Below are positions 1,911 to 48,328 of a DNA stretch of 64,000 nt, piece by piece. The notes under the pieces were generated by a model. The model had not been told where the DNA came from. It was given only the letters and a program-made list of their open reading frames with translations, and ran no database searches. Source of the stretch: Chloroflexota bacterium (lineage in GTDB: Bacteria; Chloroflexota; Limnocylindria; Limnocylindrales; CSP1-4). Numbering within the stretch: position 1 is the stretch's first letter; the number at the start of each line of letters is the position of its first letter. The position numbers and the translations under genes were made by a program. The stretch is from NCBI GenBank assembly GCA_003141455.1, contig PLMA01000067.1, positions 85,850-149,849 of the forward strand, read 5' to 3'.

Positions 1911-3029
1911 TTGATCTTGGCCATGATCCCGGCGGAGCCGGCCGACCTGGCGCGAGAAGTCAGGATCGTAGATGCGACCGAGACTGCGCCGGCAACCTGG
2001 GACGAGATGGCCGTGCGAAGCGCAATGGGCGAGGCCTTCCAATCTCATGCCTGGGGCGAGCTCAAACGCAGCCTGGGATGGACGCCACTCCGCTACGTGA
2101 TCGAGCTGTCCGGTCGACCGATCGGCGTGGTCTCCATCCAGGAACGCTCCCTGCTGGGACGACGGGCGGGGCCCCTGGGGCAGTTTCGGATCCACTACGC
2201 GCCCCGCGGCCCTGTTTTGCTCGACACGGACCCCACGGCTGCCATGGCGGCGCTCGTGGGGCTGCGGCTCGTCGCCAGGGCGCGCCACGCGCTTTCCCTA
2301 ACCATCGATCCGGCCTGGGAGGAGGGGAGCGACCTCGTGGGCGTCCTGGCCGGATCCGGCTTTCGACCGGCCGCACGAGAGATCCAGGTGTCGCGCACCT
2401 CGATGATCGTGCCCCTCGAGACGTCCGAGGTGGCTCAGCGCGCACTGCTGGGCCACACCACGTATGCAGACATCGATCGGGCCATCGGACTCGGCGTGAC
2501 GACAGAGAGGGTCGACCTGACCGACCAGGCTCTGCGTGAGGCAGCGCTGGCCGAGTTCTTCGACATGCACGCCGCAACAGGCAAGCGCGAAGGATTCCTG
2601 GTCAGGGACCGCGAGTACGAGCTGCGGCAGTGGCGGAGTCTGGGGGAATCTGGGGTCGCGAGCCTGTGGTTCGCCGGTCTGGGCGGCCGGGACACAGGCG
2701 CGCTGCTCCTCCATTCGGGCAAGCTTGTCGTCTACTTCGCCGCCGGCTCTCGAGAGGACGCCGACATGCGTCGAACGCGGGCGAACCATCTCTTGCAGTG
2801 GCGGATCATTCGCTGGGCGGCCGAGTCCGGCTACCGGGGCTACGACATGGGCGGCGTCGATACGCACGCGGCGCCCGGCGTGCCCCAGGACGAATCCCAC
2901 CCGCTCTGGAACCTCTATCTGTTCAAGCACCGCTTCGGTGGGCGGCCCGCGGTTCGAGTCCCGGCCCACGAATACGCGCCCAACGCGGTTGTCGCCGTGG
3001 CATGGCGCCTTGGCAGGCGGTTTCGTTGA
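1911..3029 (+). CDS. FemABX/MurM-like lipid II aminoacyl (peptidoglycan bridge) transferase
   Basis: FQSHAWGELK, YAPRGPVL, NHLLQWRIIRWA..GY..YDMGG, LYLFKHRFGG motifs; GGAGG upstream of a TTG start. Confidence 0.85.
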   Translation: MILAMIPAEPADLAREVRIVDATETAPATWDEMAVRSAMGEAFQSHAWGELKRSLGWTPLRYVIELSGRPIGVVSIQERSLLGRRAGPLGQFRIHYAPRGPVLLDTDPTAAMAALVGLRLVARARHALSLTIDPAWEEGSDLVGVLAGSGFRPAAREIQVSRTSMIVPLETSEVAQRALLGHTTYADIDRAIGLGVTTERVDLTDQALREAALAEFFDMHAATGKREGFLVRDREYELRQWRSLGESGVASLWFAGLGGRDTGALLLHSGKLVVYFAAGSREDADMRRTRANHLLQWRIIRWAAESGYRGYDMGGVDTHAAPGVPQDESHPLWNLYLFKHRFGGRPAVRVPAHEYAPNAVVAVAWRLGRRFR

Positions 3030-34992: not shown

Positions 34993-35148
34993 CGACTCGC
35001 CTCCAGGTCATCGACGCCACACCAGCCATAACCGCATCATCCTCGCCGCGCTCCATTCGGGCCCGGAGCACGGCATTCGACAGTAGGGTCGTTGCCCTGG
35101 GCCTGGCGGCCCGGATGTCTCTTGCAGGCGGCGGGCCCCCGGCCCCGG

Positions 35149-35436
35149 TCAGTCGCCGAAAAGGTCGCGGAGCGTCTGCTCGCGTTGCTCCCCGCTCTCG
35201 CGTCGGAGGCGGGCGCGATCGCCGCGAACGGGCTTGGCATCGCCGGGTTCCTCCGAAGGCGGGGCGATGCGGCCCGACCAGCCGCCGCCTTCGGCGTCGA
35301 TCAGTCTCTCCAGCTCGCCGTAGTCGAGGAAGATGCCGCGGCATGCCTGGCACTGCTCGACGAGGATGCCAGTCCGCTCGTACCCGAGCATCCGTCCACC
35401 GCACTTGGGACAGACGAGGCCAGTCTGCGTCGCCAT
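35149..35436 (-). CDS. zf-TFIIB-like zinc-ribbon protein
   Basis: CPKC..M....GI.VEQC..CRGIFLD.GELERL...L.DLF; GGGAG SD. Confidence 0.85.
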   Translation of the reverse strand: MATQTGLVCPKCGGRMLGYERTGILVEQCQACRGIFLDYGELERLIDAEGGGWSGRIAPPSEEPGDAKPVRGDRARLRRESGEQREQTLRDLFGD

Positions 35437-35466
35437 CGGGATCTCCCTTTCTTGCGCAAGACCCAA

Positions 35467-35533
35467 GTATCGGTCGATTGGGGCCTGAGGGTTGATCCAC
35501 GGCTGAGCTTCGTTCGCTCGTATGTGATCGGGG
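35467..35533 (-). repeat. 67-bp dispersed repeat, copy A
   Basis: 54/67 identical, ungapped, to 36675-36741. Confidence 0.85.
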
Positions 35534-35609
35534 CGAAGGAGTCGGCCCTCCAGACGTGGTCGGACAGGAGGGCGGACGCTGTTGTACTTGGCCGGGGCCA
35601 ACCACGCTG

Positions 35610-36026
35610 CTACTGATTCCGCCTCACGTCCTCGCCCGGTATGCCCCTCTGCCGAAGCGCGGCCGCGAAGGCAGCGAGGTCGTCGGCGCCTACGTAGAGC
35701 GCGGGGACGTGGAAGATCGACCACCTAACCGGCTTGCGGAAGTCGATTCGTACGCCTCCGTGCGCGGCCCCGGCGAACGACACGTCGCCGCCGCGGATCG
35801 ATCGCCTTACGCCGATTGCCTTGACCCAGATGAATGGACCCTCGATGCGCCAGCTCGCGACGTTCGCGAGAGGCGTGGCGAAGCGGACGCGCCCGAAGCG
35901 CGCCTGCAACTCGCCGTCAGGCCCTTCGCCCAGCTCCGCGTAGGCAAGGCCCGGCTTGACGCCCCACAGCCGAAGGAGCGGCAACGACCGCGGCCCGAGC
36001 CGGATGTCAAATCGTTCGACCGACAT
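35610..36026 (-). CDS. Hypothetical protein
   Basis: MSVERFDIR..LRLWGV...ARFG..RF.TPLANV...KAIGVR.S..D..F; TATGCT lies 6 nt before the ATG. Confidence 0.75.
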   Translation of the reverse strand: MSVERFDIRLGPRSLPLLRLWGVKPGLAYAELGEGPDGELQARFGRVRFATPLANVASWRIEGPFIWVKAIGVRRSIRGGDVSFAGAAHGGVRIDFRKPVRWSIFHVPALYVGADDLAAFAAALRQRGIPGEDVRRNQ

Positions 36027-36249
36027 GCGGCCAGCATATGGCGGGCTCACGCCTCCGGGGCGGACTCGCCCTCCGGGCCCGCGGGATGCACCGCCAGACT
36101 CACGACAGAACCGGAATAGGCCGACCGGCCGAGCAGGTCCGGCCAGCGGTTCCGCTATCCTGCCTCGGTAGCCTAGAAGGCCCTGTAGTCGCGTGGCGAG
36201 CGAAGCATCACCCACTCGACGACGGCACCCCAAGCCGTGAGGAGCACGC

Positions 36250-36606
36250 ATGGATCCGAATGCGAACCCCAACCCACGAGCCGACGAGCCCATCGCCTGG
36301 CGCGCCGTCCCGGAAGACGTGGAGGTGCGCTCGGACGGCCAGCCGGTCGGGACGCTGTACGACCTCCTCGGTTCCCACGAGGAAGACATCTTCCACGGCA
36401 TCGTCGTGAAGCTCCGGTCGGGGTCTCGCAGAGTCTTTGTGCCGGCGGACGACGTCGTCCTCCTGACGGCCAGCCACGTGGATGTGTCCCTGAGCGCGGC
36501 TGAGATCGGCGCGTTGCCCGAGCACACGGAAGAACGAGGGTTCGGTCTGGGGATGGTCGGGCTCTTCCGCAAGCATGTCGGCTGGACCAGGGAGAAGGAC
36601 CGCTAA
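36250..36606 (+). CDS. PRC-barrel/DUF2171-like hypothetical protein
   Basis: IAWRA......V..DG..VG.L..LLG....DIFHG.VV......FVPADDV; GAGGAG SD. Confidence 0.7.
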   Translation: MDPNANPNPRADEPIAWRAVPEDVEVRSDGQPVGTLYDLLGSHEEDIFHGIVVKLRSGSRRVFVPADDVVLLTASHVDVSLSAAEIGALPEHTEERGFGLGMVGLFRKHVGWTREKDR

Positions 36607-36674
36607 GCTGCCGGCCTCACCCAGGCGCTCACGACGCAGCGGGCCGCCCTCCGGACGCAGCGGTCGCGCAGGGT

Positions 36675-36741
36675 TCGTCGGCCGATTGGGGCGAGAGGGT
36701 TGGGCGACGGCTGAGCTTCATTTGCCCGTATGTGTTCGGGG
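36675..36741 (-). repeat. 67-bp dispersed repeat, copy B
   Basis: Ungapped 54/67 match to 35467-35533. Confidence 0.85.
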
Positions 36742-36916
36742 TGGTCGAGAGCTACCTGGCGAGCCTTGGCCAGGGGTAGCTGCCCCACCCTGTTTGCTGA
36801 TCTTGGGAGTCCTTCGGTCATCCGATTGGACTACCATTCAGGGTAGGGGTCGGCGTCGCCACGTTGCGGCGGCCCGGCGACACTGGCTCGATGTCAACCG
36901 CGAAGACCACAACCGT

Positions 36917-37378
36917 CTCCTTTCGATCACCTTCGTGGCCCCGAGCAATGGACCATCGGCTCACGCCATCTTCGATGTGACCGGCTATTTCACCCCCGAT
37001 ATGAGCGGCGCCACCTACGTCCCGCTGACCCCGACCAGAGTCCTCGATACCCGCAACGGCACCGGCGGTCTCGGTGGTCCCTTCACCAACCATGCCGCCC
37101 GAACCTTCACCGTCGGCGGGGTTCCTGCAGGTGCCATCGCCGTCACCGGCAACCTGACCGTGACCGGGCAGACGAGCAGTGGCTACTTCTCCATCGGCCC
37201 GGTCGCTACGGACAACCCGGGCAGCTCGACTCTGAACTTCCCGGTCGGTGACGACCGGGCCAACGCGGTGACCGTCGCCCTCGGTGGCGGTGGCACCCTC
37301 TCGATCACCTTCGTGGCTCCGAGCAGCGGCCCCACGGCCCAGGGGATCTTCGACGTGACCGGCTACTTCGCGCCATAG
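36917..37378 (+). pseudogene. C-terminal remnant of a repeat-domain surface protein
   Basis: LSITFVAPS.GP.A..IFDVTGYF occurs twice around one PTRVLDTR...NLTV...TLNF unit; no credible start or signal peptide. Confidence 0.7.
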
Positions 37379-37466
37379 GGCAGGCTGCGAAGACGGAGAG
37401 ATCCGCGGGCCGCGCGAGCTGGGGCCCCCAGGGCCGCGCCCGACAGGTCGCGTATCCTTTGCCCGT

Positions 37467-38848: not shown

Positions 38849-38992
38849 TTACAGCTGGTACAACTCGGCCGAAGGAGACCCGCCGCCGGCTATCAGGATC
38901 CGGCCGTCGCGCAGGAGCGTCGCGGTCTGGTCCATGCGAGCAGCGGCCATGGCGTGGGCCGGACTGAAGGTACCGGCGCTCGGGTCGTACAC
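38849..38992 (-). pseudogene. Last blade of a Kelch/galactose-oxidase-repeat protein
   Basis: VYDPSAGTFSPAHAMAAARMDQTATLLRDGRILIAGGGSPSAELYQL*, matching the final repeat of 62042-63613; no in-frame start. Confidence 0.8.
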
Positions 38993-39214
38993 CCCGCCTG
39001 CACCCCCATCAACAGGGCCGGGACGGGTGGCCCTTTGGCATTGTAGCCGTGGCCGAACCGTTCGATCCTCTACTCCCTGGGCCTTGGAGCAGTCCTTCGC
39101 GAGGCGGGCGGCGCCTCTCCACTAGTTGCTCCCGGCAGGGGAGGGCTGATCCAGAACGGACGTTCTCATGCAATCGCCGGAGATCGACCCTCGCGACCAC
39201 CCGTGTTGGCAGGC

Positions 39215-39298
39215 CGTGGATAAGTAGCGAAACAACCGTTTCCCCAACCCAAACTGGTGGATAAGCCACTATCGCGGCAGGGGCCAGAAGCCTAGATT
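39215..39298 (+). promoter_or_regulatory. Two DnaA-box-like 9-mers plus TAGATT -10 (module 1)
   Basis: CGTGGATAA 39215-39223 and GGTGGATAA 39256-39264 (one mismatch each from TGTGGATAA); TAGATT 39293-39298. Confidence 0.6.
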
Positions 39299-39305
39299 CT
39301 GTCTT

Positions 39306-39643
39306 GCCCGGAGGGGCCAGCGAGATCATCACCGACTCAGCGGTTTCGACGGAAACGGTGTAGCGATCTACCGGAAGGTCCAGGGACCCGCAAGGGTTTC
39401 TGAACCGGAAAGCAGATCGTGAACCGCGGAAGTCGGAATGTAGAGGGTCGGTGGCAGTCCCGGCAGTGGCCGGAGCGCGGTCCGCCGTTTGAGCGAGGAG
39501 TTTTCGGACCCCTTGTTCGCGGAGGTCGAAGCGGCCGGTACACGCGAGACCGCAGTCTGATCGAACAGGTTCCTTCGGGCGTTTTCGTGTGTCCGGCGAG
39601 GGCGTCTGCCGCCGTGGCGCCCGGGGCACCGTCAGCCCGGGCA
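39306..39643 (+). ncRNA. Candidate ~340-nt structured ncRNA, family unknown
   Basis: Nested stems CCGACT/AGTCGG, GCGGTT/AACCGC, CGATCT/AGATCG, CAGGGACCC-GCAA-GGGTTTCTG, ACC-GGAA-GGT, TGTTCG/CGAACA, CC-TTCG-GG; 5'/3' ends pair; no credible ORF. Confidence 0.6.
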
Positions 39644-39719
39644 TGCGAGACCCGCCGAGCAGGGTAGGGGACCCAGGAGGTATCCTCGGCCGCGACCCGC
39701 CCGTGCAGCAAGGAAGGCG

Positions 39720-40478
39720 ATGGCGCTCCCCGGCCCCACCATCTGGTTCATCGTCCCGACATACAACGAGCGCGAGAACGTCGGCCCCATCACCGACGCC
39801 ATCCTGGAGACCGTTCCAGAGGCTCACATCCTGATCGTGGACGACGGATCGCCCGACGGCACAGGCGATCTGGCCGACGAGATGGCCGGCCGTAACCCGG
39901 CGATCGCCGTGCTCCACCGCCAGGCCAAGCAGGGCCTCGGGCGCGCCTACGTGGCTGCGTTCAGAGAGCTGATCGGCCGCAACGCGGACATCGTGGTCCA
40001 GATCGACGCCGACTTCAGCCACCCCGTCCGGTATCTGCCCTCGCTCCTGGAGCCCCTGCGCACGGGCAAGGCGGACCTGGTTCTGGGTTCGCGCTACGTG
40101 AAGGGCGGCCACATTCCGCGCTGGAACATCCTGCGCCGCCTGGTCAGTCGGGGCGGGAGTGTCTTCGCCGGCGTCGTCCTCTTGCTCCCGTTCCGAGATC
40201 TCACGGGCGGCTACAAGGCCTGGTCCGCGAGCGCGCTCAAGGAGATCGATCTCGACCGGCTTCACGCAGGCGGCTACGCCTTCCAGATCGAGACCACTTT
40301 CCGCGCCCGCCAGGGCGGCGCCAGCATCGTCGAAGTCCCGATCACGTTCGAGGAACGCAGGGCGGGCCAGTCGAAGATGAGCATGAACATCTTCATGGAG
40401 GCGTTCCTGCTCGTCCTGGCCCTGCGAGTCACGAACCTCCGCCGCCGCAAGCGCACCCGACCGGGGTCCGCCGCCTGA
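39720..40478 (+). CDS. Polyprenol monophosphomannose synthase-like GT2 glycosyltransferase
   Basis: IVPTYNERENV, VDDGSPDGTG, KQGLG.AY, IDADFSH, GSRYV.GG, DLTGGYK, GYAFQIE, EVPI.F.ERRAG.SK. Confidence 0.93.
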   Translation: MALPGPTIWFIVPTYNERENVGPITDAILETVPEAHILIVDDGSPDGTGDLADEMAGRNPAIAVLHRQAKQGLGRAYVAAFRELIGRNADIVVQIDADFSHPVRYLPSLLEPLRTGKADLVLGSRYVKGGHIPRWNILRRLVSRGGSVFAGVVLLLPFRDLTGGYKAWSASALKEIDLDRLHAGGYAFQIETTFRARQGGASIVEVPITFEERRAGQSKMSMNIFMEAFLLVLALRVTNLRRRKRTRPGSAA

Positions 40479-40555
40479 CGTCGCAGGCCCCCGAGCACGC
40501 CCGTTCGACTCGCCTCGTGGTCCGCCGCGTGCCGGATGGCCACCTGTGCACGAGC

Positions 40556-40639
40556 CGTGGATACCACCCGTCACGAGGGCGACCAGTTTCCAAACAGGTG
40601 GATAAGGCGGTTGGCATCGGACGCCCGGCGGACTAGATT
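40556..40639 (+). promoter_or_regulatory. Two DnaA-box-like 9-mers plus TAGATT -10 (module 2)
   Basis: CGTGGATAC 40556-40564, GGTGGATAA 40597-40605, TAGATT 40634-40639; spacing identical to module 1. Confidence 0.6.
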
Positions 40640-40646
40640 CGTTCTT

Positions 40647-40778
40647 GCCCGGAGGGGCCACGGACACCCGAACGACTCGATCGATTCTAGGATCGGCCGA
40701 ACGATGCGGGGTCGCGGTTCCTTCGGGCGCTCCATGTCCGTTCCAGGGCGGCCCGCCGTAGCCCGCACGCCGGCGGGC
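40647..40778 (+). ncRNA. Candidate ~130-nt shorter paralogue of the 39306-39643 RNA
   Basis: Same 5' GCCCGGAGGGGCCA and GGTTCCTTCGGGCG; stems CGGACA/TGTCCG, CGACTC/GGGTCG, CGATC/GATCG, GCCCG/CGGGC. Confidence 0.5.
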
Positions 40779-40844
40779 CGCTTGCTGCGCGCCGGCCTCG
40801 TCCACTTCTTACATCACTGTTGCGCCCGGTGATATCATCCAAGC

Positions 40845-41090
40845 ATGATACGAACGCAGATCTCCCTGACCGAGAAGCAGATGAACCGCCTCCGCCGCGC
40901 GGCGAGCGCTAGGGGAGTGTCCATCGCGTCGGTGATACGCGAGGCCGTGGATCGTTCAGTGCCTGACGAAGGGGCTGACCGGCTGGCGCGGCAGCAGCGA
41001 GCCTTCAAGCTTGCCGGCACCTTCTCGTCCGGTCACAGCGACACCTCCGAGCGCCATGACGAGATTCTCGCGGAAAAGCCGCGCTGGTGA
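40845..41090 (+). CDS. vapB: CopG/RHH antitoxin (VapB-type)
   Basis: MIRTQISL......L...A...GVS.A.VIREAVD, G.F.SG..D.SERHD; overlaps the PIN gene by 4 nt; ATCAC/GTGAT inverted repeat at 40813-40833. Confidence 0.88.
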   Translation: MIRTQISLTEKQMNRLRRAASARGVSIASVIREAVDRSVPDEGADRLARQQRAFKLAGTFSSGHSDTSERHDEILAEKPRW

Positions 41091-41479
41091 GCGTATTCGT
41101 CGACACGAGCGCCCTCTACGCGCTGCTCGACGCTGCCGACGCCGGCCACGAGCGCGCGTTGCGCGGGAGTGAACTCATCCTGGGCGAGGAACTACTCACG
41201 CACAGCTACGTGATGGTCGAGGCGGTATCGCTTGTCCGGCGCCGACTCGGAGCCGAAGCGGCGGCCCGCCTCATCGACGACATGCTGCCCGCAATCAAGA
41301 TAGTCGACGTGGACGAGGCTCTCAGAGGACGCGCGGTCGCAGCGTTTCGCGCGGCCGTCTCCTCGAGCATCTCTCTCGTTGACCGGACGAGCTTCGAATT
41401 CATGCGCACGCTCGGCATCTCGCGCGCCTACGCCCTTGACCCGGACTTCGAGGCAGAGGGCTTCGAGCTAGTCAGCTGA
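41087..41479 (+). CDS. vapC: PIN-domain toxin
   Basis: VFVDTSALYA, E, SLVDRTSF..M, ALDPDF. Confidence 0.92.
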   Translation: MSVFVDTSALYALLDAADAGHERALRGSELILGEELLTHSYVMVEAVSLVRRRLGAEAAARLIDDMLPAIKIVDVDEALRGRAVAAFRAAVSSSISLVDRTSFEFMRTLGISRAYALDPDFEAEGFELVS

Positions 41480-41557
41480 GAGAACGAAGCCCAAGGGCCC
41501 TTCCACGCAAGCCTAGCGCCCTTGCCACACGGCGCCTAGTGTAGTAGGCTTGGCGAC

Positions 41558-41728
41558 GTGAAGCGCCACGAGCTCCTGTGGGGGATCGCAAGAGCGGCCC
41601 GGGCGCAGGGCGTTGTGTGGCAACTCCACCGACAAGGCGCCAGCCACGAGATCTGGCGGTGTGACGGCCTGAAGGTGATCTCTAGGAAGCTCGAAGGGGT
41701 GCTTGGGAAGGACTGGTGGCGACGGTGA
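41558..41728 (+). CDS. hicA: HicA-like toxin, 56 aa, apparently internally deleted (absent from the ORF track)
   Basis: MKRHELL..IARAA...GV.W.L.RQGASHEIWRCDG..V|ISRKLEGVLGKDWW; GTGA overlap with hicB; TAGGCT lies 7 nt upstream. Confidence 0.75.
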   Translation: MKRHELLWGIARAARAQGVVWQLHRQGASHEIWRCDGLKVISRKLEGVLGKDWWRR

Positions 41729-42138
41729 AGCCGGTCTACACAGCCACGGCAGTTCGGAGCGGTCGATGGTGGGCCATCGAAGTACCGGACGTGTCCGGCG
41801 TGTACTCACAGGCGCGACGGCTGGATCAAGTGGGGGCGATGGCCCGAGAGGCGATCGCACTCATACAAGATGTCCCCGAGGACTCCTTTGATGTCATCGT
41901 TGAGCCGCAGATCGGGGCCCTTGGCGACCTCGGCCGCGCGATTGAGGACGCGCTACGAGCCCGCCAGGCGGCCGAGCAAGCTCAAGAGGTATCGTCTACA
42001 GCCATGCGCCACGCGGTCAGCGAGATCCGCAGCTCGGGCTACACGGCGCGCGATGCCGGCATGCTCCTCGGCGTCAGCAACCAGCGCATCAGCCAGATCG
42101 AGCGAAGCGGGGGCAGGAAGCGGACTCCAACTCCATAG
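41725..42138 (+). CDS. hicB: HicB-like antitoxin with C-terminal HTH
   Basis: YTATAVRSGRWWAIEVP.V.G.YSQARRLDQV..MAREAI; RDAG.LLGVS.QRISQ. Confidence 0.88.
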   Translation: MKPVYTATAVRSGRWWAIEVPDVSGVYSQARRLDQVGAMAREAIALIQDVPEDSFDVIVEPQIGALGDLGRAIEDALRARQAAEQAQEVSSTAMRHAVSEIRSSGYTARDAGMLLGVSNQRISQIERSGGRKRTPTP

Positions 42139-42222
42139 TCCCGACTGAGCGTCAGGCAACAGTCGAGGTCTCTAGGCCTCCCATTGTGCTGCCGATAAGA
42201 TAGGTTATGTCCGTTACTTGAA

Positions 42223-43053
42223 CTACAGGACCTCTTTGCCAAAGACGCGGTCGATGGGCAGATATCGGACGGGATCGGTCAGGCGGGGACCTGCTTGCCT
42301 TAGCCACGAGTCGAACCACACGTACCACGCCAACAAGGCGTTCTCGCCGAGGTCGTACGTCTCAGCTGGTTTGGGCATAAGAGCCTCGAGGCTTGGCCCG
42401 TGAGTGGCGTGGAGACGCGCTCTTTGCGGGCTGCCTGGTTGACCGAGCTTGGCGAGCTCGAGGTAGGTGCCTGCTCGCGCCACCACTCGATCAGGCACAA
42501 CAAGAAGATCAGGCTGTTCCGATCTGGGACATTCCTTGAGGGCTTGCGTGTAGTTCGCCTGGAAAGTCGCCGAAGCGGGACAATCGAATCCCCAAATCAC
42601 GAACAGGGATTCCGCGAGGGGCTGCAACTGGGCTGGCGCGAGGCAAAATCGCCGTTGTAGTCTTTTGAACGCACGTCCCTTCTTGATGGCATCCGCCATC
42701 TCCTGAGGCGACAGCATCGTCTTGACCTCCACAAGGCCGTACACAGCCTCAACGGGCCACAGCTCGTTTCGACTGCCGCCGTACAGCGGTGCGTTGTTGA
42801 GGACGTCCACGACGAGTAGATCGGCTTGACTAGAGAACTCCCCTTCAGAAGAGATCACCATTCCTGATCGAACGCCAAACTTCCGCGGCAGGTGCTGCTC
42901 AAGGAACCGGCCCACGATGTCCTGGCGGTTTTCACCGGCCGACAGATGGTGAGAAGCAAAGTCGCGACGGATCGCAGCAGACTGGTTGCGCATCTCTGCG
43001 GCGACCCCGGCCAGGTACTCCGGCAGGATTGCTGACTTAGGGGCACTGTTCAT
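42223..43053 (-). CDS. DUF6602-like PD-(D/E)XK nuclease-fold protein
   Basis: GE.RQ.IV.RFL..HLP..FGV.SG.VI...G..S.QAD..V.D, PVEAVYGLVEVK; visibly more AT-rich than the core genes. Confidence 0.75.
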   Translation of the reverse strand: MNSAPKSAILPEYLAGVAAEMRNQSAAIRRDFASHHLSAGENRQDIVGRFLEQHLPRKFGVRSGMVISSEGEFSSQADLLVVDVLNNAPLYGGSRNELWPVEAVYGLVEVKTMLSPQEMADAIKKGRAFKRLQRRFCLAPAQLQPLAESLFVIWGFDCPASATFQANYTQALKECPRSEQPDLLVVPDRVVARAGTYLELAKLGQPGSPQRARLHATHGPSLEALMPKPAETYDLGENALLAWYVWFDSWLRQAGPRLTDPVRYLPIDRVFGKEVL

Positions 43054-43604
43054 ACCCCGTACACCTTCAGGATGTCGTCGCCGTAGTGGTTGATCACTTT
43101 GATGGCGATGCAGCCGGAATCCGGGACTCGGAACGGGCGCGAAACCGTTGAGTTCAGCGAGGACCAGGCGGCCTCGTCGATGTCGGCACGGAGGGCGCGG
43201 CGGAGCTTGTCGTATGGGTCGTCATCGCCGAGGAAATATGCGTGGCGGACGAAGAACTGGCGGTTGTCGTAGGCGGTATCTATGAACCAGCAGGCGATGT
43301 CGGCGGTGGATTGGGGGACTATCTCGCCGTTGGTGGGCTTGTAGGTGTCGAGGCCGCGGATTTCGACCTGGAGCTGGCCCTCCCCTACCCTGCGGATGTC
43401 GACGTCGGGCTGGCCGAAGATGGAGAACAGGTTGCCGATGCGCGTCTTCTTGAGCAGGTCTTCGCCCATGCTGAGGTCCGGGTTCATTCGAACGGCCAGG
43501 ACGGTCAGGTTGCCGAAGCGCATCGCCTTGCCGGTCTCCTCGTCCGCACGGGCGTCGAACGCGAAGCCGCAGACATGACGGCCGATACCCTGTGCATCGC
43601 TCAA
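43050..43604 (-). pseudogene. C-terminal domain only of a type III-like site-specific DNA methyltransferase (Mod)
   Basis: CGFAFDA, RMNPDL.M.EDLLKKT..GNLF..FGQPD, DIACWFIDT.YD...FFVRHAYF, IAIKVINHYGDD; catalytic half absent; TTG 43604 comes from the repeated leader. Confidence 0.8.
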
Positions 43605-43619
43605 GGCCTTCCCCCGCTT

Positions 43620-43645
43620 GCGTGACGGTGCTCCCCTACTGTAGC
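43620..43645 (-). repeat. 26-bp promoter/leader repeat, copy 1
   Basis: GCGTGACGGTGCTCCCCTACTGTAGC (+ strand). Confidence 0.9.
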
Positions 43646-43690
43646 CCCTCGGCGCGGCCCCGGAGAGACCCGACCTGCGGTCGGCCGCGC

Positions 43691-44635
43691 TTACGGCCGG
43701 AACCTGGCCTCGCCGTGCCAGCTGAGCATGTCGCGCGAAGGCTGCTCGAATGCGGCTTGCGGCAATCGGATTGGGCAACCATCGAGTTCGTAGTACTCCC
43801 GTCCGTTCTCGAACTCCTCGTGGATCCGCCGACTGACACGAACCCGCAGGTCATCGGGCGTCACCGTCATGTAGCCGAGATCGAAGAGGGTATGCAGGTC
43901 GGATCGGAGCAGGAGCCCGTTCGAGACCTCGTGGCGGCCGACGAGGTTGTAGGGCTTGATGTGCGCGGCCTCCAGCACCGGCAGCGTCCGCTCTCCCGTC
44001 ACGACGCATCGACGGTCATAGGCATCCGTGACCATGACGCGAAATGCGCCCTGGCCAAGCCGGGGGCGAACGAGGAGTGGGCTACCGTACGATGCCGCCG
44101 GGCCGTCACTGGTCGCATGCGCGAGATCCGCGATTGGCTGCGCGGAACTGACTACCGCCAGCGCCTCCAAGACGCGCAGCCAGAGGCGCTGGCCCTCGCC
44201 GATCTCGGTGTCGTATGTCTTGCCGCGCGTGAGATTCGAGGACCAGTCGGCGGGCGGCTCGATCCACATCTCCCTTGGCAGGAAGAATGGCTCGACGAGG
44301 ATCGAGGCGCCAATCTGCGTGCTGAGCGGATCCACAGCCCTTTCGCTATGCCTGCGAACCAGTTGGAGGAATGCGTCGTAGGAGGCAGCACCGTTGGACT
44401 TACCAAAGGCGTCCCAAGCGAGCTGCGGTGTCAAGGTCGAGTAGTGCGCAAACCGCGCGCCGCCGACGATGTATCCGCCGTTGCGGACGTGGAGCTTGAA
44501 GAGCCACGGTGCGCCTTCGGGCAGAGTGACCGGGCGCACATTGTTGGGCTGCCAGAAGTTCACCTCGTCGATAGGTGCGACCGAAGTGAGGTAGCTGACC
44601 CAGGAAGAGTCTGTGTTCGCGACCCAGTACCGCAC
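43691..44635 (-). CDS. HNH endonuclease with N-terminal putative DNA-reader domain (type IV restriction-like)
   Basis: YWVANTD..W..YL...DEVNFWQP; RLGQGAFR..V..AY...C.VTG...LEAAHI.P...H.V.NGLLLRSDLH.LFD. Confidence 0.88.
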   Translation of the reverse strand: MRYWVANTDSSWVSYLTSVAPIDEVNFWQPNNVRPVTLPEGAPWLFKLHVRNGGYIVGGARFAHYSTLTPQLAWDAFGKSNGAASYDAFLQLVRRHSERAVDPLSTQIGASILVEPFFLPREMWIEPPADWSSNLTRGKTYDTEIGEGQRLWLRVLEALAVVSSAQPIADLAHATSDGPAASYGSPLLVRPRLGQGAFRVMVTDAYDRRCVVTGERTLPVLEAAHIKPYNLVGRHEVSNGLLLRSDLHTLFDLGYMTVTPDDLRVRVSRRIHEEFENGREYYELDGCPIRLPQAAFEQPSRDMLSWHGEARFRP

Positions 44636-44762
44636 TCGTGGAGTCTACGAGGGCGCGGACTCTCGCGGAATACCCACTTGTGCCTGGCCCGCGAAGGCGC
44701 TCCATCGATGTGCCGCCCACTACTCACCCAGCTTCGGCGTGCTCGGAGCGATGAAGCCGCCT

Positions 44763-44787
44763 GGGGTCCACGTAGATCATTCTGGAC
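44763..44787 (-). pseudogene. Possible eroded Mod catalytic motif (VQ-MIYVDP)
   Basis: GTCCAG-A-ATGATCTACGTGGACCCC resembles KVQMIYIDPPY with a 1-nt insertion; very short. Confidence 0.3.
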
Positions 44788-44872
44788 CTGGATGTGGATC
44801 GGGATCGCCGGCACGACGAGCGCCCCCGACGGAGGTCGGCGCGGCCGGCTTGCCAATTCTCCTGGCCAACGC

Positions 44873-45283
44873 TTACTTCCCGCTTACCTTCGCTGCCGTC
44901 GCATCCATGATCGTTTGGGCGCCTGCCACTGCTTCCTCGGCTTCCGTCCACGTTGGCTCGTCCGGATCACCCAGCTCGGTTACGTATCGCACGCCTCGAG
45001 CCATCGCGCTGAGCGACGCCAGCGTCTTCATCGACACGCCGAGGTTCAGATCCGCAGGCAGCATCGACTTGAGGGCAACCAGGTTGTGATCGCGCGGAGG
45101 TTCGATCCCCTCGGCCACTGGCACCGCCTTCATCGACTTCTCGGCAGCCTGCTGAGCGTGGAAACCAGCTGCCCAAGGCTCCATGTCGGGCCCCCTCTTC
45201 AGGATGACCCTGGCCAGCGCGAGGTCCGTCTTGGCCTTGGCAAGCCAGAGTTCCGCGACCGCAAGCTGCTCAGCTGCGCGCAT
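44873..45283 (-). CDS. HEPN domain protein
   Basis: WLAKA..DL..A....FHAQQAAEKSMKA...PPRDHNL..L; coupled to the MNT gene. Confidence 0.88.
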   Translation of the reverse strand: MRAAEQLAVAELWLAKAKTDLALARVILKRGPDMEPWAAGFHAQQAAEKSMKAVPVAEGIEPPRDHNLVALKSMLPADLNLGVSMKTLASLSAMARGVRYVTELGDPDEPTWTEAEEAVAGAQTIMDATAAKVSGK

Positions 45284-45815
45284 AGATGGTGACCCCCTCC
45301 CGAAGGGCCGGGCGCAGCGTGGATCCAGCGAGATTGGCGCCTCGCGCAAGCTGCTCCGGCGTGGCAACGATCACGTCAGTGGACAGCGGGATACCCTGGA
45401 GCGCCTGGTAGATGGCTACCTCGATGTCTCGTCCTCGCTGCACGCCGGACACAACGATCAGCAGGTCCGCGTCGCTGTCGGGACGAGCCTCCCCCCGGGC
45501 CTGGGAACCGAAGAGGATGATCTTCTCCGGCTTGAAGCCACGGACGATGCGGCGCTTGATCAAGGGCAGCCACTCGATTGCTTGTTGCGACAGACGCAGC
45601 TTCTGCTTCTTCGCTCCCCTCTTTGGCCCGGAGCTCGCCCGGTAGTCTTCCACCTCAGCGCGTCTCCAGATTCGGCCGTTGGCGACGATGGCCGCCGGCG
45701 CGGGAAAATCAGGCCTGGAGGCCCAGTCGCGGATGAAGTTGGGCACGTTGACGCCGTAGATCTCGGCAGCCTCCTTGGTGCCCAGGAGCTCCATTGGAGT
45801 CTCGCGCTCGCTCAT
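45270..45815 (-). CDS. AlpA/excisionase-like HTH fused to a minimal nucleotidyltransferase (MNT)
   Basis: N-terminal LLGTKEAAE..GV......RPDFPAP......GRIW...EV; C-terminal IILFGSQARG.ARPDSDADLL. Confidence 0.85.
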   Translation of the reverse strand: MSERETPMELLGTKEAAEIYGVNVPNFIRDWASRPDFPAPAAIVANGRIWRRAEVEDYRASSGPKRGAKKQKLRLSQQAIEWLPLIKRRIVRGFKPEKIILFGSQARGEARPDSDADLLIVVSGVQRGRDIEVAIYQALQGIPLSTDVIVATPEQLARGANLAGSTLRPALREGVTIYARS

Positions 45816-45821
45816 GTCGTT

Positions 45822-45840
45822 ATGATAGCATCACTATCAT
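45822..45840. promoter_or_regulatory. Inverted-repeat operator over the HTH-MNT promoter
   Basis: ATGATAG-CATCA-CTATCAT; the minus-strand TATCAT lies 6 nt before ATG 45815. Confidence 0.65.
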
Positions 45841-45950
45841 TAGATACACGCCCCCCTCTGCAGCGAGCTCACGTGCGCGCGGACGAGGTTGGCCGCGTCC
45901 CAGGGATCGGTGACTTCCAAGAAGGACCACCGGCCCAGGCCGCCGCGCTC
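45840..45950 (-). pseudogene. Extreme C-terminal remnant of a type III-like restriction subunit (BPTD_3080-like)
   Basis: ERGGLGRWSFLEVTDPWDAANLVRA resembles the GGFGRWAFLEI.DPWD terminus recalled for this family. Confidence 0.6.
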
Positions 45951-46029
45951 TGATAGGAGCAGGTCCCAGCGACCCGGATACCTCTCCAACCAGGCCCGTC
46001 TTGGTTCAGTCGATGCTCGCGCTTGTGCG

Positions 46030-46476
46030 TCAGTGCGGCGAGGGAATCGCCGGCGAATGAGTGGGAATCCCTCGCATTATCACGTCGGTGAGGTACTGGC
46101 TGACGAGTCCCGAGATGGGCACTAGGAAGGTCAGCATGAGCGTGGTGAAGACGATGAAGCAAGCGATCTTGAACGACGCGCTTCTCGCGTAGCCGCGCGG
46201 AAGCCAGGGCGAAAGCAGCACCGGGAGAGCCATAGGGAAGAGATCGGCTGCCCCGATCGCCGCATAGATACCGGGTCCCGAAGTCAGCCCGCCGACGATG
46301 AACCCAAGCCCGATCACAAGCCCGACAGCGCCGCACGCGAGGACCAACCGGTCGAGATGAATACCTCGGGTCCGAGCGGGCTTGCTCTGGACTTCGCGCA
46401 CGGCCGCCAGCCCGAGATCGGATGCGCCGCCGACCATCTCGCGCGTGCCGCGGCAATCCGGGAACTGGGGAATGCA
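46030..46476 (-). CDS. Membrane protein or remnant with a partial topoisomerase-type C4 zinc-finger motif
   Basis: C..QFPDCRGTR lies upstream of the ORF-track start, followed by 3 TM segments; start unclear. Confidence 0.45.
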   Translation of the reverse strand, partial: CIPQFPDCRGTREMVGGASDLGLAAVREVQSKPARTRGIHLDRLVLACGAVGLVIGLGFIVGGLTSGPGIYAAIGAADLFPMALPVLLSPWLPRGYARSASFKIACFIVFTTLMLTFLVPISGLVSQYLTDVIMRGIPTHSPAIPSPH

Positions 46477-46492
46477 GGTGATGCTGAGTAGC

Positions 46493-46807
46493 TCACCGGC
46501 GTTCCTCGGTCAACCAAGTGAGGATCACCAGGGGGATGATGATGACGATCCACGGGATGAAGTAGACCTGGCTCGTGAAATAGGCGGCGAAGTCGCTCAA
46601 GCCCTTCGGCGCCGTCAGCGCGGCCCACAGGCAGAGAACCGGCAACGTCAGCGCCCATATCCCAAGCGCGAGCCGAAGGAACTCGTGCAGGAAGCTGCCG
46701 CTTGGTCGGATGACCGCGTCGAAGGACGCGCCGCAATGGCGACAGGCCTTGTCGCTCGCGGCCACCAGGCCGCCGCAGTTGGAACAGACCCGATCTGCCA
46801 CCCTCAC
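46493..46807 (-). CDS. Zinc-ribbon membrane protein
   Basis: CSNCG......ACRHCG followed by two TM helices. Confidence 0.7.
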   Translation of the reverse strand: MRVADRVCSNCGGLVAASDKACRHCGASFDAVIRPSGSFLHEFLRLALGIWALTLPVLCLWAALTAPKGLSDFAAYFTSQVYFIPWIVIIIPLVILTWLTEERR

Positions 46808-46832
46808 CCCGCTCCTTGTTCGAGACGCGGGT

Positions 46833-47223
46833 TCAATGTACTCCTCCCCTCGCCTGCGGCGTCTCGTCGTGCGTGTCGGCGTCGAAGGCGGCGATCGAGG
46901 CGCGCAGGTTGCCGGCGACCTGCCTGGGGTCCGCCAGGATAGCCCGCAGGTTCAGTCGCGAGGTGTAGTAGGCCTCGATGCCGGTCACGGTCTTACAAGA
47001 CGGGGCCGACGGTCTGCACGGTCAGGGTCTTGCCGCGGGCGAGGACCTGGGCTTTGGTGGGCTCGAGGACGCAGTCGAGCCGGCGGAGCAGGACGAGCGG
47101 CAGGATGACCCGGCCGTACTCGGACTGCTTGTGATCGCCGCGCAGCAGATCGGCGATGGCCCAGATGAGGCCGGCGTGGTTGGTGGGCGCGGCGTGATTC
47201 GTGGCGGCGCTGCCCTCGGCCAA
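46833..47223 (-). pseudogene. hsdM: Type I R-M methyltransferase HsdM, N-terminal fragment with frameshift
   Basis: [36 protein letters not shown], a +1 shift at ~46995, then TGIEAYYTS.LNL..ILADP..VA.NL; truncated after ~120 codons. Confidence 0.85.
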
Positions 47224-47240
47224 CTGATACCCCCGGGAAC

Positions 47241-47266
47241 GCGTGACGGTGCTCCCCTACTCTAGC
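47241..47266 (-). repeat. 26-bp promoter/leader repeat, copy 2
   Basis: GCGTGACGGTGCTCCCCTACTCTAGC. Confidence 0.9.
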
Positions 47267-47310
47267 CAGTTGCGGCACGGTTCGAACTGCCCAGCCGGCG
47301 AGCGACAGTC

Positions 47311-47349
47311 TTGACACGCCATCGTCGACGTGTAGCATATGCGCTACAC
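47311..47349 (+). promoter_or_regulatory. Sigma70-type promoter with palindromic operator
   Basis: TTGACA 47311-47316, TAGCAT 47333-47338, GTGTAGC-N6-GCTACAC 47330-47349; AGGAG SD follows. Confidence 0.75.
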
Positions 47350-47361
47350 CAGGAGACAGGC

Positions 47362-47724
47362 GTGAAGACTGAATTCGATCGCGACTTCGATGGCTGGATG
47401 CAAGATCCGGAGTTCGCAGACGGTTACGCCCTGGAGCGCAGGCGGATCGATGCTATCGACCGGATCGTTCACGCTCTGGACGCGGCCCGGCAGGAGCGCG
47501 GCATGACGAAAGCCGACGTGGCGCGTGCTGCCGGTCTCCCCGCGCAATCGGTTCGCCGCTTCTTCACGCAGAGCCCGCAGAATCCCACGCTGTCGGTGAC
47601 TGTTGCCATAGCCTCTGCTGTCGGTCAGCCTTTGATCACGACCGAAGCTGCCGCACCCGTGGAGCGTCGAAGTCCGGCAGCACCGACGAGGGCTACAGCG
47701 CCACGGACCGCGGTCGCCGGCTGA
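47362..47724 (+). CDS. XRE-family HTH antitoxin-like protein
   Basis: FD..M.DPEF...Y..ER.RID.ID.I..ALD.AR...GMTKADVAR......VRR.FT...NPTL. Confidence 0.8.
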   Translation: MKTEFDRDFDGWMQDPEFADGYALERRRIDAIDRIVHALDAARQERGMTKADVARAAGLPAQSVRRFFTQSPQNPTLSVTVAIASAVGQPLITTEAAAPVERRSPAAPTRATAPRTAVAG

Positions 47725-47881
47725 GGTATTCGTCTCCAAGGGCTCGGATCCGCGCGTAGTCGGCCGTGGTGAAGACCGTCAGGTATGGCTTGGTCATGCC
47801 TCCCAGGATGATCAGGGACGGGCCCGGCAGGCCGTTCGCCGCCGTTTGACGCTCCAGAAGGCAGAAGAGCCGGTAGTGGAG
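47693..47881 (-). pseudogene. C-terminal half of a RelE/HigB-like toxin
   Basis: LHYRLFCLLERQ...GL.GPSLIILGGMTKP..TVF...DYARIRALGDEY; in-frame stop upstream, no start. Confidence 0.6.
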
Positions 47882-47940
47882 CCGCCGGCCGCCTCGGGCC
47901 GTAGGTCACGACGCCCCATAGCGTTCACTCAGCCTTGACG

Positions 47941-47960
47941 GGTTATCAGAAGTGATAACC
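47941..47960. promoter_or_regulatory. Palindromic operator upstream of an orphan HTH gene
   Basis: GGTTATCA-GAAG-TGATAACC, directly after TTGACG. Confidence 0.65.
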
Positions 47961-47980
47961 TGCCCCGAGAAAGGGAGCGA

Positions 47981-48328
47981 ATGAACAAGCAGGCCGTGTC
48001 GACCCCGTTCAATCCCATTGGCAGCGAGTTCGCCGCGTCTCGCGAGTTGAGGCGGCGCGACCCTGCGTATGCGGCAGCCGAGGCCGAGTTGGCTCCGATG
48101 GAGGCGCTGGCCAGGCTCTTGATCGCCTACCGCATTGAGCAGGGGCTGACCCAAATGGCTCTCGCCGAGCGCGTGGGCACGAGTAAGACCGCCATCTGCC
48201 GGCTCGAGAGTGGCCAGCACAAGCCTTCGGTGGAGACGCTCGTGAAGATAGGGCGTGCGCTCGGGCAGAAGCTGGTCATTGGCTTTGAGGATGCGTCCGG
48301 CCGGAGGGACGTCGCGACCATTTCTTAG
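47981..48328 (+). CDS. Orphan XRE-family HTH antitoxin (HigA-like)
   Basis: RDP.Y.AAE.EL...LA.LLI.YR...GLTQ..LAERVGTSK.AI.RLESG.H.PS..TL.KI..ALG. Confidence 0.85.
   Translation: MNKQAVSTPFNPIGSEFAASRELRRRDPAYAAAEAELAPMEALARLLIAYRIEQGLTQMALAERVGTSKTAICRLESGQHKPSVETLVKIGRALGQKLVIGFEDASGRRDVATIS

Follow-up and report, generated by a model that had tools for sequence, protein, structure and literature searches.

In the window (the whole 64,000-nt stretch of DNA that was analysed), two 14-mers occur twice on the + strand, in the same order, on either side of a glycosyltransferase gene. The earlier note had taken them for the ends of a long and a short copy of one RNA. The locus raises the questions of whether these intervals are RNA genes, whether the two RNAs are the same RNA, and what their common ends may be for.

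Both 14-mers were found exactly as described: GCCCGGAGGGGCCA at 39306-39319 and 40647-40660, and GGTTCCTTCGGGCG at 39568-39581 and 40716-40729. Identity on the 5' side reaches 18 nt (TCTTGCCCGGAGGGGCCA). At 68% GC, chance alone would give the window loose matches to a 14-mer (up to 2 mismatches); chance is excluded here because the exact pair is ordered, mutually complementary and syntenically kept in ~44 genomes (long) and 40 genomes (short). The features of the locus are as follows.

39205-39224, + strand: distal block of the long gene, GTTGGCA and then DnaA-box-like GTGGATAAG (39216-39224), at about -92
39257-39265, + strand: proximal DnaA-box-like GTGGATAAG of the long gene (reverse complement CTTATCCAC), at about -50, abutting a weak -35
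39293-39298, + strand: -10-like TAGATT of the long gene, ending 7 nt before the first G
39306-39580, + strand: long RNA, 275 nt between predicted ends, the hflX-proximal 'A' member, from 44 homologues, covariation and covariance model (CM)
39581-39596, + strand: U-rich tail of the long RNA, GTTTTCGTGTGTCCGG, directly after the closing helix
39720-40478, + strand: GT2-family glycosyltransferase gene, between the two RNA genes and outside the RNA family
40557-40565, + strand: distal DnaA-box-like GTGGATACC of the short gene (in relatives, GTGGA[AC]A), 41 bp above its proximal box
40598-40639, + strand: promoter of the short gene, with GTGGATAAG at 40598-40606, -35 TTGGCA at 40611-40616, a 17-nt spacer and -10 TAGATT at 40634-40639
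40647-40728, + strand: short RNA, 82 nt between predicted ends, the 'B' member, from conservation in 40 genomes, fold and CM
40729-40781, + strand: 3' extension of the short RNA, with a pyrimidine-rich tail, a degenerate CCGUCAC motif and a GC hairpin

Structures of the long and short RNAs

In each RNA, GCCCGGAGGGGCC pairs with GGUUCCUUCGGGC to form a closing helix of 13 bp that includes two invariant tandem G·U pairs. Of its 12-13 pairs, 10 do not vary in either RNA, and the helix is also kept across the classes of the wider family described below. Such invariance of sequence, tandem G·U included, suggests recognition by a shared protein or processing enzyme.

In the long RNA, the closing helix surrounds a multi-branched structure with GCAA and UUCG tetraloops and the invariant junction strands GGAAACGG, CGCGGAAG, GAAUGUAGAGG and CCGGCAGUGGCCGGAGCGC. 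Its folding energy was -138.7 kcal/mol (z -5.4), better than 200 of 200 dinucleotide shuffles. A MAFFT alignment of 44 homologues gave 70 consensus pairs with 96.2% of cells paired; slid controls were 31-50% paired. Both sides had changed in 21 pairs, a number reached by none of 500 shuffles. The CM of the long RNA (R2) scored 205-308 bits on the + strand at 44 loci and much lower on the - strand. An all-against-all covariation scan, in which the clade signal was dominant, lengthened helix 3 by one pair (columns 30/148) and revealed no further helices or pseudoknots.

The short RNA is an unbranched rod. From the closing helix inwards, it consists of CGG/UCG, CCG/CGG, an internal loop of which both strands read CGAACGA, UCG/CGA and an apical hairpin. 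Its folding energy was -46.5 kcal/mol (z -4.4), and it likewise beat 200 of 200 dinucleotide shuffles. Mean identity over 40 genomes was 92%, although nearby intergenic DNA has diverged past alignment. There were 3 compensated pairs, with 98.9% of cells paired; covariation is scarce because the sequence is so highly conserved. The CM of the short RNA (R1) scored 74-109 bits on the + strand versus 30-52 bits on the - strand. For both models, preference for the + strand, in round figures ~100-300 bits versus up to ~45 bits on the - strand, is as expected from G·U pairs. R1 also matched 80-84-nt hflX-linked family members at 45-53 bits, so the rod design extends to RNAs more distantly related to the short RNA.

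Duplicated internal-loop strands were observed in the short RNA (40669-40706, CGAACGA twice) and in an 83-nt class of the family (e.g., L188:1505-1587, AUCUAGUGA twice). The duplication makes the helix, with its A·A or G·A mismatches, pseudo-two-fold symmetric, which hints at a binding site for a dimer. Not all members have it; L148 and L019 are exceptions.

Protein coding by the two RNAs was rejected. No 3-nt periodicity was found, lengths vary by 1-2 nt and by non-multiples of 3, and just 30% of the long copies have a stop-free + frame of any kind. Covariation in the long RNA, the strand bias of the CMs and the lack of coding signal thus uphold the earlier view of a long/short pair of + strand non-coding RNAs with selection on structure. 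A 598-aa minus-strand ORF (39009-40805) was also rejected as a gene; it is a high-GC shadow of GT2.

The earlier note went further and described the short RNA as the long RNA minus ~200 nt of peripheral arms, i.e., as a short paralogue with the same core helices, from which the same function would follow. The two genes do have promoter, 13-bp closing helix and U-rich tail in common, with paralogy extending ~130 bp upstream and ~12 nt downstream. R2 matches the short copies at 21-31 bits, and the named helix CGATCT/AGATCG of the long RNA was roughly right (82% paired). However, the R2 score is about what the closing helix alone contributes, R1 fails to match the long RNA, and a rod stands against a multi-branched fold. 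The interiors have no detectable homology: nhmmer gave E >=0.2 one way and no match the other, and the Smith-Waterman score was below the shuffle mean. As to the 'equivalent helices', the strings exist, but three of the four named internal helices lose to alternatives better supported by covariation. In the long RNA, CCGACT/AGTCGG was paired in 58.9% of cells, not above shuffles, and AGUCGG is used in the covarying helix GUUUCGA/UCGGAAU. In the short RNA, CGATC/GATCG is a register of the window only, with one pair broken in 38 of 40 sequences versus 98% paired in the alternative register. For CGACTC/GGGTCG the paired fraction was 92.9%, but column 67, on its 3' side, covaries with a column of a competing helix (17) and not with column 29. 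The parts common to both RNAs also occur in more than 100 other RNAs, and dozens of quite different inserts carry the same ends. We consider derivation of one RNA from the other by loss of arms quite unlikely. There was also no sign of the long and short RNAs pairing with each other; RNAduplex on the interiors of 40 genome pairs gave a mean z of -0.45.

With slightly more confidence than doubt, and judging from sequence, we read the locus as two adjacent, independently transcribed sRNA genes of a lineage-specific, end-clamped family in Candidatus Limnocylindria, which are probably co-regulated via DnaA boxes.

Gene order and synteny

The gene order at the locus is miaA–hflX–long RNA–GT2–short RNA. 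Relatives of the intervening GT2 in the genome collection place the host in Chloroflexota, Candidatus Limnocylindria, and among the matches listed the named homologues nearest to neighbouring proteins of the family (including PNP and HflX) are from Limnocylindrales MAGs. Limnocylindria (formerly Ellin6529) are abundant uncultured bacteria of soil, peat and freshwater. No paper on RNA regulators in Limnocylindria was found in the literature searched.

In 43 genomes and in the window, the orthologous GT2 is preceded by a long RNA of 269-277 nt. An 81-82-nt homologue of the short RNA lies downstream of GT2 in 40 genomes, so the short copy, whose absence from relatives would have spoken against it, is present at the syntenic place. 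Loci around paralogous GT2 genes (63-69% identity) had neither RNA. Genomes whose HflX is at least 84% identical to that of the window carry long RNA, GT2 and short RNA. Those whose HflX is 76-81% identical carry two shorter tandem members (84+84, 114+112, 117+113 or 159+112 nt) without GT2, and for this reason the tandem pair at hflX appears to be ancestral. The long RNA arose from the hflX-proximal member by lineage-specific expansion. In one locus (L105), long and short RNA are 385 nt apart and GT2 is missing.

GT2 looks like a passenger at the RNA locus, with a conserved upstream element of its own (39662-39698). In most orthologous loci, a block GGGTAGGGGA-N8-10-GGTATCCTCGGCCGCGACCC, at 39662-39698 in the window, lies 20-60 nt 5' of the GT2 start codon. 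This block may be GT2's own promoter (TATCCT as -10), of which the -35 is not sigma-70-like, or a 5'-UTR element.

The two RNAs could instead be cis-elements of the GT2 mRNA, the long RNA serving as a riboswitch or attenuator leader that works by read-through of the helix-plus-U-tail and the short RNA as a 3'-UTR element. GT2 starts 139 nt after the long RNA, in the same orientation, and the long RNA has a terminator-like U-rich tract after its closing helix. A 72-78-nt class of the wider family is likewise upstream of, and co-oriented with, a gene for purine-nucleoside-phosphorylase (PNP). However, the spacer between long RNA and GT2 varies in length and sequence, and the element upstream of GT2 is conserved. 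L105 and all relatives whose HflX is 76-81% identical have an RNA pair but no GT2. A separate promoter serves the short RNA, and the genes 3' of the short RNA differ among relatives. No Rfam riboswitch matched, and the combination of a constant 5'-UTR position with an adjoining expression platform, as in riboswitches and cis-leaders, was not found. We therefore regard a role as GT2 cis-elements as unlikely and keep to two independently transcribed genes. For annotation, this means that the 'empty' gaps of roughly 500 nt and 370 nt flanking GT2 are RNA genes.

Several other features of the surroundings were observed. The arrangement miaA-hfq-hflX is common elsewhere; in L001-L042, the miaA-hflX interval has no hfq, and the sRNA pair directly follows hflX. 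In the window, ~2.4 kb between miaA and hflX (~34993-37466) contain ORFs without Pfam match and are otherwise shared by L001 only; this segment is probably an insertion, because hflX directly adjoins miaA in most relatives. A vapB (ribbon-helix-helix)/vapC (PIN) toxin-antitoxin pair (40845-41479) lies between the short RNA and a HicB-like ORF (41716-42138). It also looks inserted, since a HicB-like gene is often directly 3' of the short RNA in relatives. At ~40000-48000, GC content falls to 0.635-0.65, and genes for DUF6602, an HNH_2 endonuclease, a nucleotidyltransferase, an HsdM N-terminal fragment and an HTH_3 protein occur, which suggests that the RNA pair is followed by a defence or mobile island.

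A family of RNAs with common ends

A scan of metagenomes with the pattern GTGGATAAG-N36-44-GCCCGRAGGGGC gave at least 120 stretches. Among the matches listed, only about a fifth are long or short RNAs. In the remainder (more than 100 genes), promoter, both end strands and tail are the same, but they surround unrelated inserts of 72-191 nt. Metagenome and genome loci together comprise at least 204 instances and at least 183 unique RNAs of 72-277 nt, in at least about 38 sequence classes. The predicted transcript of the family begins GCCCGRAGGGGC and ends GGUUCCUYYGGGC.

Two further classes were folded; both retain the closing helix and have compensated pairs. In the 72-78-nt class, the apical loop is invariant (GAGAUCRCAUCAA). 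Subsets of classes have recurrent modules: a hairpin GGUG-CUUG-CAUC (1-3 copies), the loop GAGAUCRCAUCAA (1-2 copies) and GGAGCGAUCC. As to a common single-stranded seed or motif, no module was present in all classes or in the two RNAs of the window.

Each class occupies its own fixed locus: downstream of hflX, in the moaA–PNP interval, beside MFS or AAA_33 genes, and others. The moaA–RNA–PNP class was seen in an ENA 2.1-Mb contig and in GCA_010104075.1. In L201 and L202 (~2850-3000), a conserved block of ~150 nt without Rfam match lies between a 76-nt family RNA and the PNP start; it may be a separate leader element. Single contigs contained two members at most, and the best 120 HflX homologues included none from the 2.1-Mb contig of the PNP locus. 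From distinct syntenic classes in the same order, we infer that a genome has more than two members. Clustering of ORFs within 2.5 kb gave class-specific synteny only and no recurrent partner protein gene.

Many copies with conserved ends and variable interiors would also be expected of a small non-autonomous mobile element (MITE- or SINE-like) that has the two conserved 13-mers as its ends. However, each class keeps one syntenic site in genomes whose flanking proteins are 76-93% identical. The complementarity of the arms needs G·U, pointing to RNA rather than DNA, and the conserved unit takes in ~130 bp of promoter. No transposase gene was found nearby, and a viral collection had no matches to the family. 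A mobile element is thus very improbable, and we return to a family of sRNA genes.

No model of Rfam 15 (4227 models) matched the window or 20 other family loci at the gathering threshold, and L201 and L202 gave no match either. With E up to 10, matches around both RNAs were at chance level only (sucA, 20.9 bits versus 40; CC1840, 21.1 versus 50). ARAGORN found no tRNA or tmRNA genes in the 64-kb window. No description of this RNA family was found in Rfam 15 or in the literature searched by sequence string and keyword. No Rfam family has the design of shared promoter, end-to-end helix and interchangeable insert.

Promoters, tails and a possible mechanism

A promoter scan of 38900-41100 gave a single sigma-70-like call, versus 0.1 expected. 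This was the promoter of the short gene, which is conserved in 40 loci. In the long gene, the position of TAGATT predicts an RNA start at or beside G39306. Both genes have a second GTGGA[CT]A box 41-42 bp above the proximal box; the distal box of the long gene reads GTGGACAAC in most relatives. Exact GTGGATAA occurs at 3 sites in the 64-kb window, all of them inside these two promoters.

The same architecture was found throughout the family. Among the matches listed, 94% of the 186 unique family promoters have a TANNNT that begins at -13 (+/-1), versus 0.4% of background. Boxes were scored as 9-mers within 1 mismatch of TT[AG]TCCACA. The metagenome set had been selected on the proximal box and the 5' strand, so that finding both throughout this set is in part circular; no selection on the promoter was applied to the genome loci. 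In these promoter-unbiased loci, the proximal box (-50) was present in 95%, and the -92 box in 58% versus 4% of control windows. Overall, 58-71% of loci versus 2-4% of controls had the distal box, with positions and orientations fixed. Many metagenome classes have further boxes at about -108 and -120 in the opposite orientation, and there are 2-5 phased DnaA-box-like sites per locus.

CTTATCCAC, TTGTCCACA and TTATCCACA agree with the established DnaA-box consensus at 8-9 of 9 positions, and the loci have at least two clustered 9-mers within 1 mismatch of TTATCCACA/TTGTCCACA, as in DnaA-box clusters. DnaA is the simplest candidate binder and is offered as a lead only; another factor with a similar site is possible. 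In the long gene, the position of the proximal box against a weak -35 suggests activation. A replication origin at this locus was rejected; GC skew has no turning point in the window, and only five GTGGAYAA sites occur in its 64 kb.

Clusters of DnaA boxes outside the origin are known from E. coli (datA, DARS1/2), B. subtilis and DnaA-regulated promoters (dnaA, nrdAB, sda). They resemble the present sites in having 2-5 9-mers near TTATCCACA/TTGTCCACA within ~100 bp, fixed orientation, helical phasing (here 41-42 bp) and a position outside an origin-like region. However, the clusters known so far either lie beside protein-coding genes or work as DNA alone. To our knowledge, none has been reported to drive a family of structured RNAs. 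Nor do we know of any sRNA family with a DnaA-box-like upstream site; the literature searched gave none.

The clusters might be the functional part of the locus, titrating or recycling DnaA, with transcription merely modulating their occupancy and the RNA itself having no function. The phased sites, their fixed orientations and their presence at several intergenic loci are consistent with this. However, helices show compensatory changes, G·U pairs work on the sense strand only, and loops and junctions stay unchanged between genomes in which no similarity is left in the adjacent intergenic DNA. These findings indicate selection on the RNA itself, and a purely DNA-level role is improbable.

Downstream of the closing helix, the family has a tail with the consensus R-Y-U-U-Y-N-K-U-G-Y. 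Its T content was 52-55%, versus 15.7% in background, and among the matches listed 97% of the promoter-anchored set had at least 4 T in 10 nt. The U-rich tail presumably is a termination signal. As in intrinsic terminators, a GC-rich helix (-25 kcal/mol for the 13 bp of the closing helix alone) directly precedes a U-rich tract. Unlike in intrinsic terminators, the entire RNA of 55-250 nt forms the 'loop', the transcript's first 13 nt make up the 5' arm, and the stem sequence is conserved across paralogues. A terminator scan around the RNAs gave no call, the reason being this RNA-sized 'loop'.

The tail of the short RNA in the window is U-poor (3 T in 10 nt), and this RNA would rely on a second hairpin. 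A GC hairpin GCGGCCCGCCG...CGGCGGGCCGC at 40748-40781, with conserved stem sequence and variable loop (L001-L042), is likely a back-up terminator. The CCGUCAC motif before it has 1-3 intact copies in relatives and is degenerate in the window (CCGTTCC, 40738-40744). Motif and hairpin are conserved in 33 of 38 short-RNA loci and absent from the features shared with the long gene. They were rejected as a genome-wide REP-like repeat; GCGGCCCGCCG and CCGTCAC are not enriched away from the locus.

The genes, their conservation, their structures, their promoter architecture and the family are established here. The mechanism that we propose for them starts from a cassette of phased DnaA-box-like cluster, sigma-70-type -10, end-pairing transcript and U-rich tail. 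Occupancy of the boxes, most simply by DnaA, would set transcription of the whole family. Closing helix and tail would end transcription and could also shield both RNA ends from exonucleases, and the closing helix may be a common protein handle. The variable insert would then be the effector. The inserts consist almost wholly of helix, and their conservation is strongest in internal loops, in junctions and in the hairpin modules of 1-3 copies; for this reason we propose that they bind or titrate proteins rather than pair as antisense RNAs.

In design, the family is closest to Y RNAs and to sibling-sRNA regulons (Rsm, Qrr, GlmY/Z), and it is a member of neither. Y RNAs and YrlA/YrlB, the partners of Ro60/Rsr, are also several small RNAs per genome, often in tandem; their ends pair in a sequence-conserved stem, where the protein handle lies, and the internal module varies between paralogues. 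A closing stem conserved in sequence among paralogues was likewise found here, and Y RNAs are the nearest analogue for how the family might work. However, there was no Y_RNA or YrlA match in Rfam and no tRNA-like module, the stem sequence is unrelated, and the promoters here are DnaA-box-like. No TROVE/Rsr or RtcB was found among the scanned neighbours (MiaA, HflX, GT2, VapBC, MoaA, PNP, MFS and others).

Sibling regulons such as RsmX/Y/Z with the GacA box, Qrr1-5 with LuxO/sigma-54, GlmY/GlmZ and CsrB/CsrC have paralogues with their own promoter and terminator, a factor site at fixed upstream distance, variable counts of a repeated hairpin module and differences in length. At the level of sequence, the paralogues here likewise have individual promoters, putative terminators and a conserved site for a factor upstream. 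However, sibling regulons are defined by a single-stranded motif (GGA or a seed) and have unpaired ends, whereas the shared part here is an end-to-end helix and inserts are unrelated between classes. 6S RNA and Ms1-type RNAs differ in being a long rod with a large central bubble; here, the long RNA is multi-branched, the short RNA has small internal loops, and no Rfam match was obtained.

If the sites are true DnaA boxes, the replication initiator would be tied to post-transcriptional or RNA-protein regulation at an undescribed scale. A more far-reaching idea, conceivable although we doubt it, is that the closing helix is the handle of a new ribonucleoprotein and that the family is a DnaA-controlled regulon broadcasting replication-initiation status via interchangeable RNA 'cartridges'. 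If true, this would be a new bacterial RNA class, organised more like eukaryotic snRNA and Y-RNA families than like known bacterial sRNAs. The locus exposes at least 180 distinct small RNAs on one cassette of common promoter, end-to-end helix and interchangeable inserts, and the promoter box together with the 5' strand is a simple sequence handle for finding all members in a genome.
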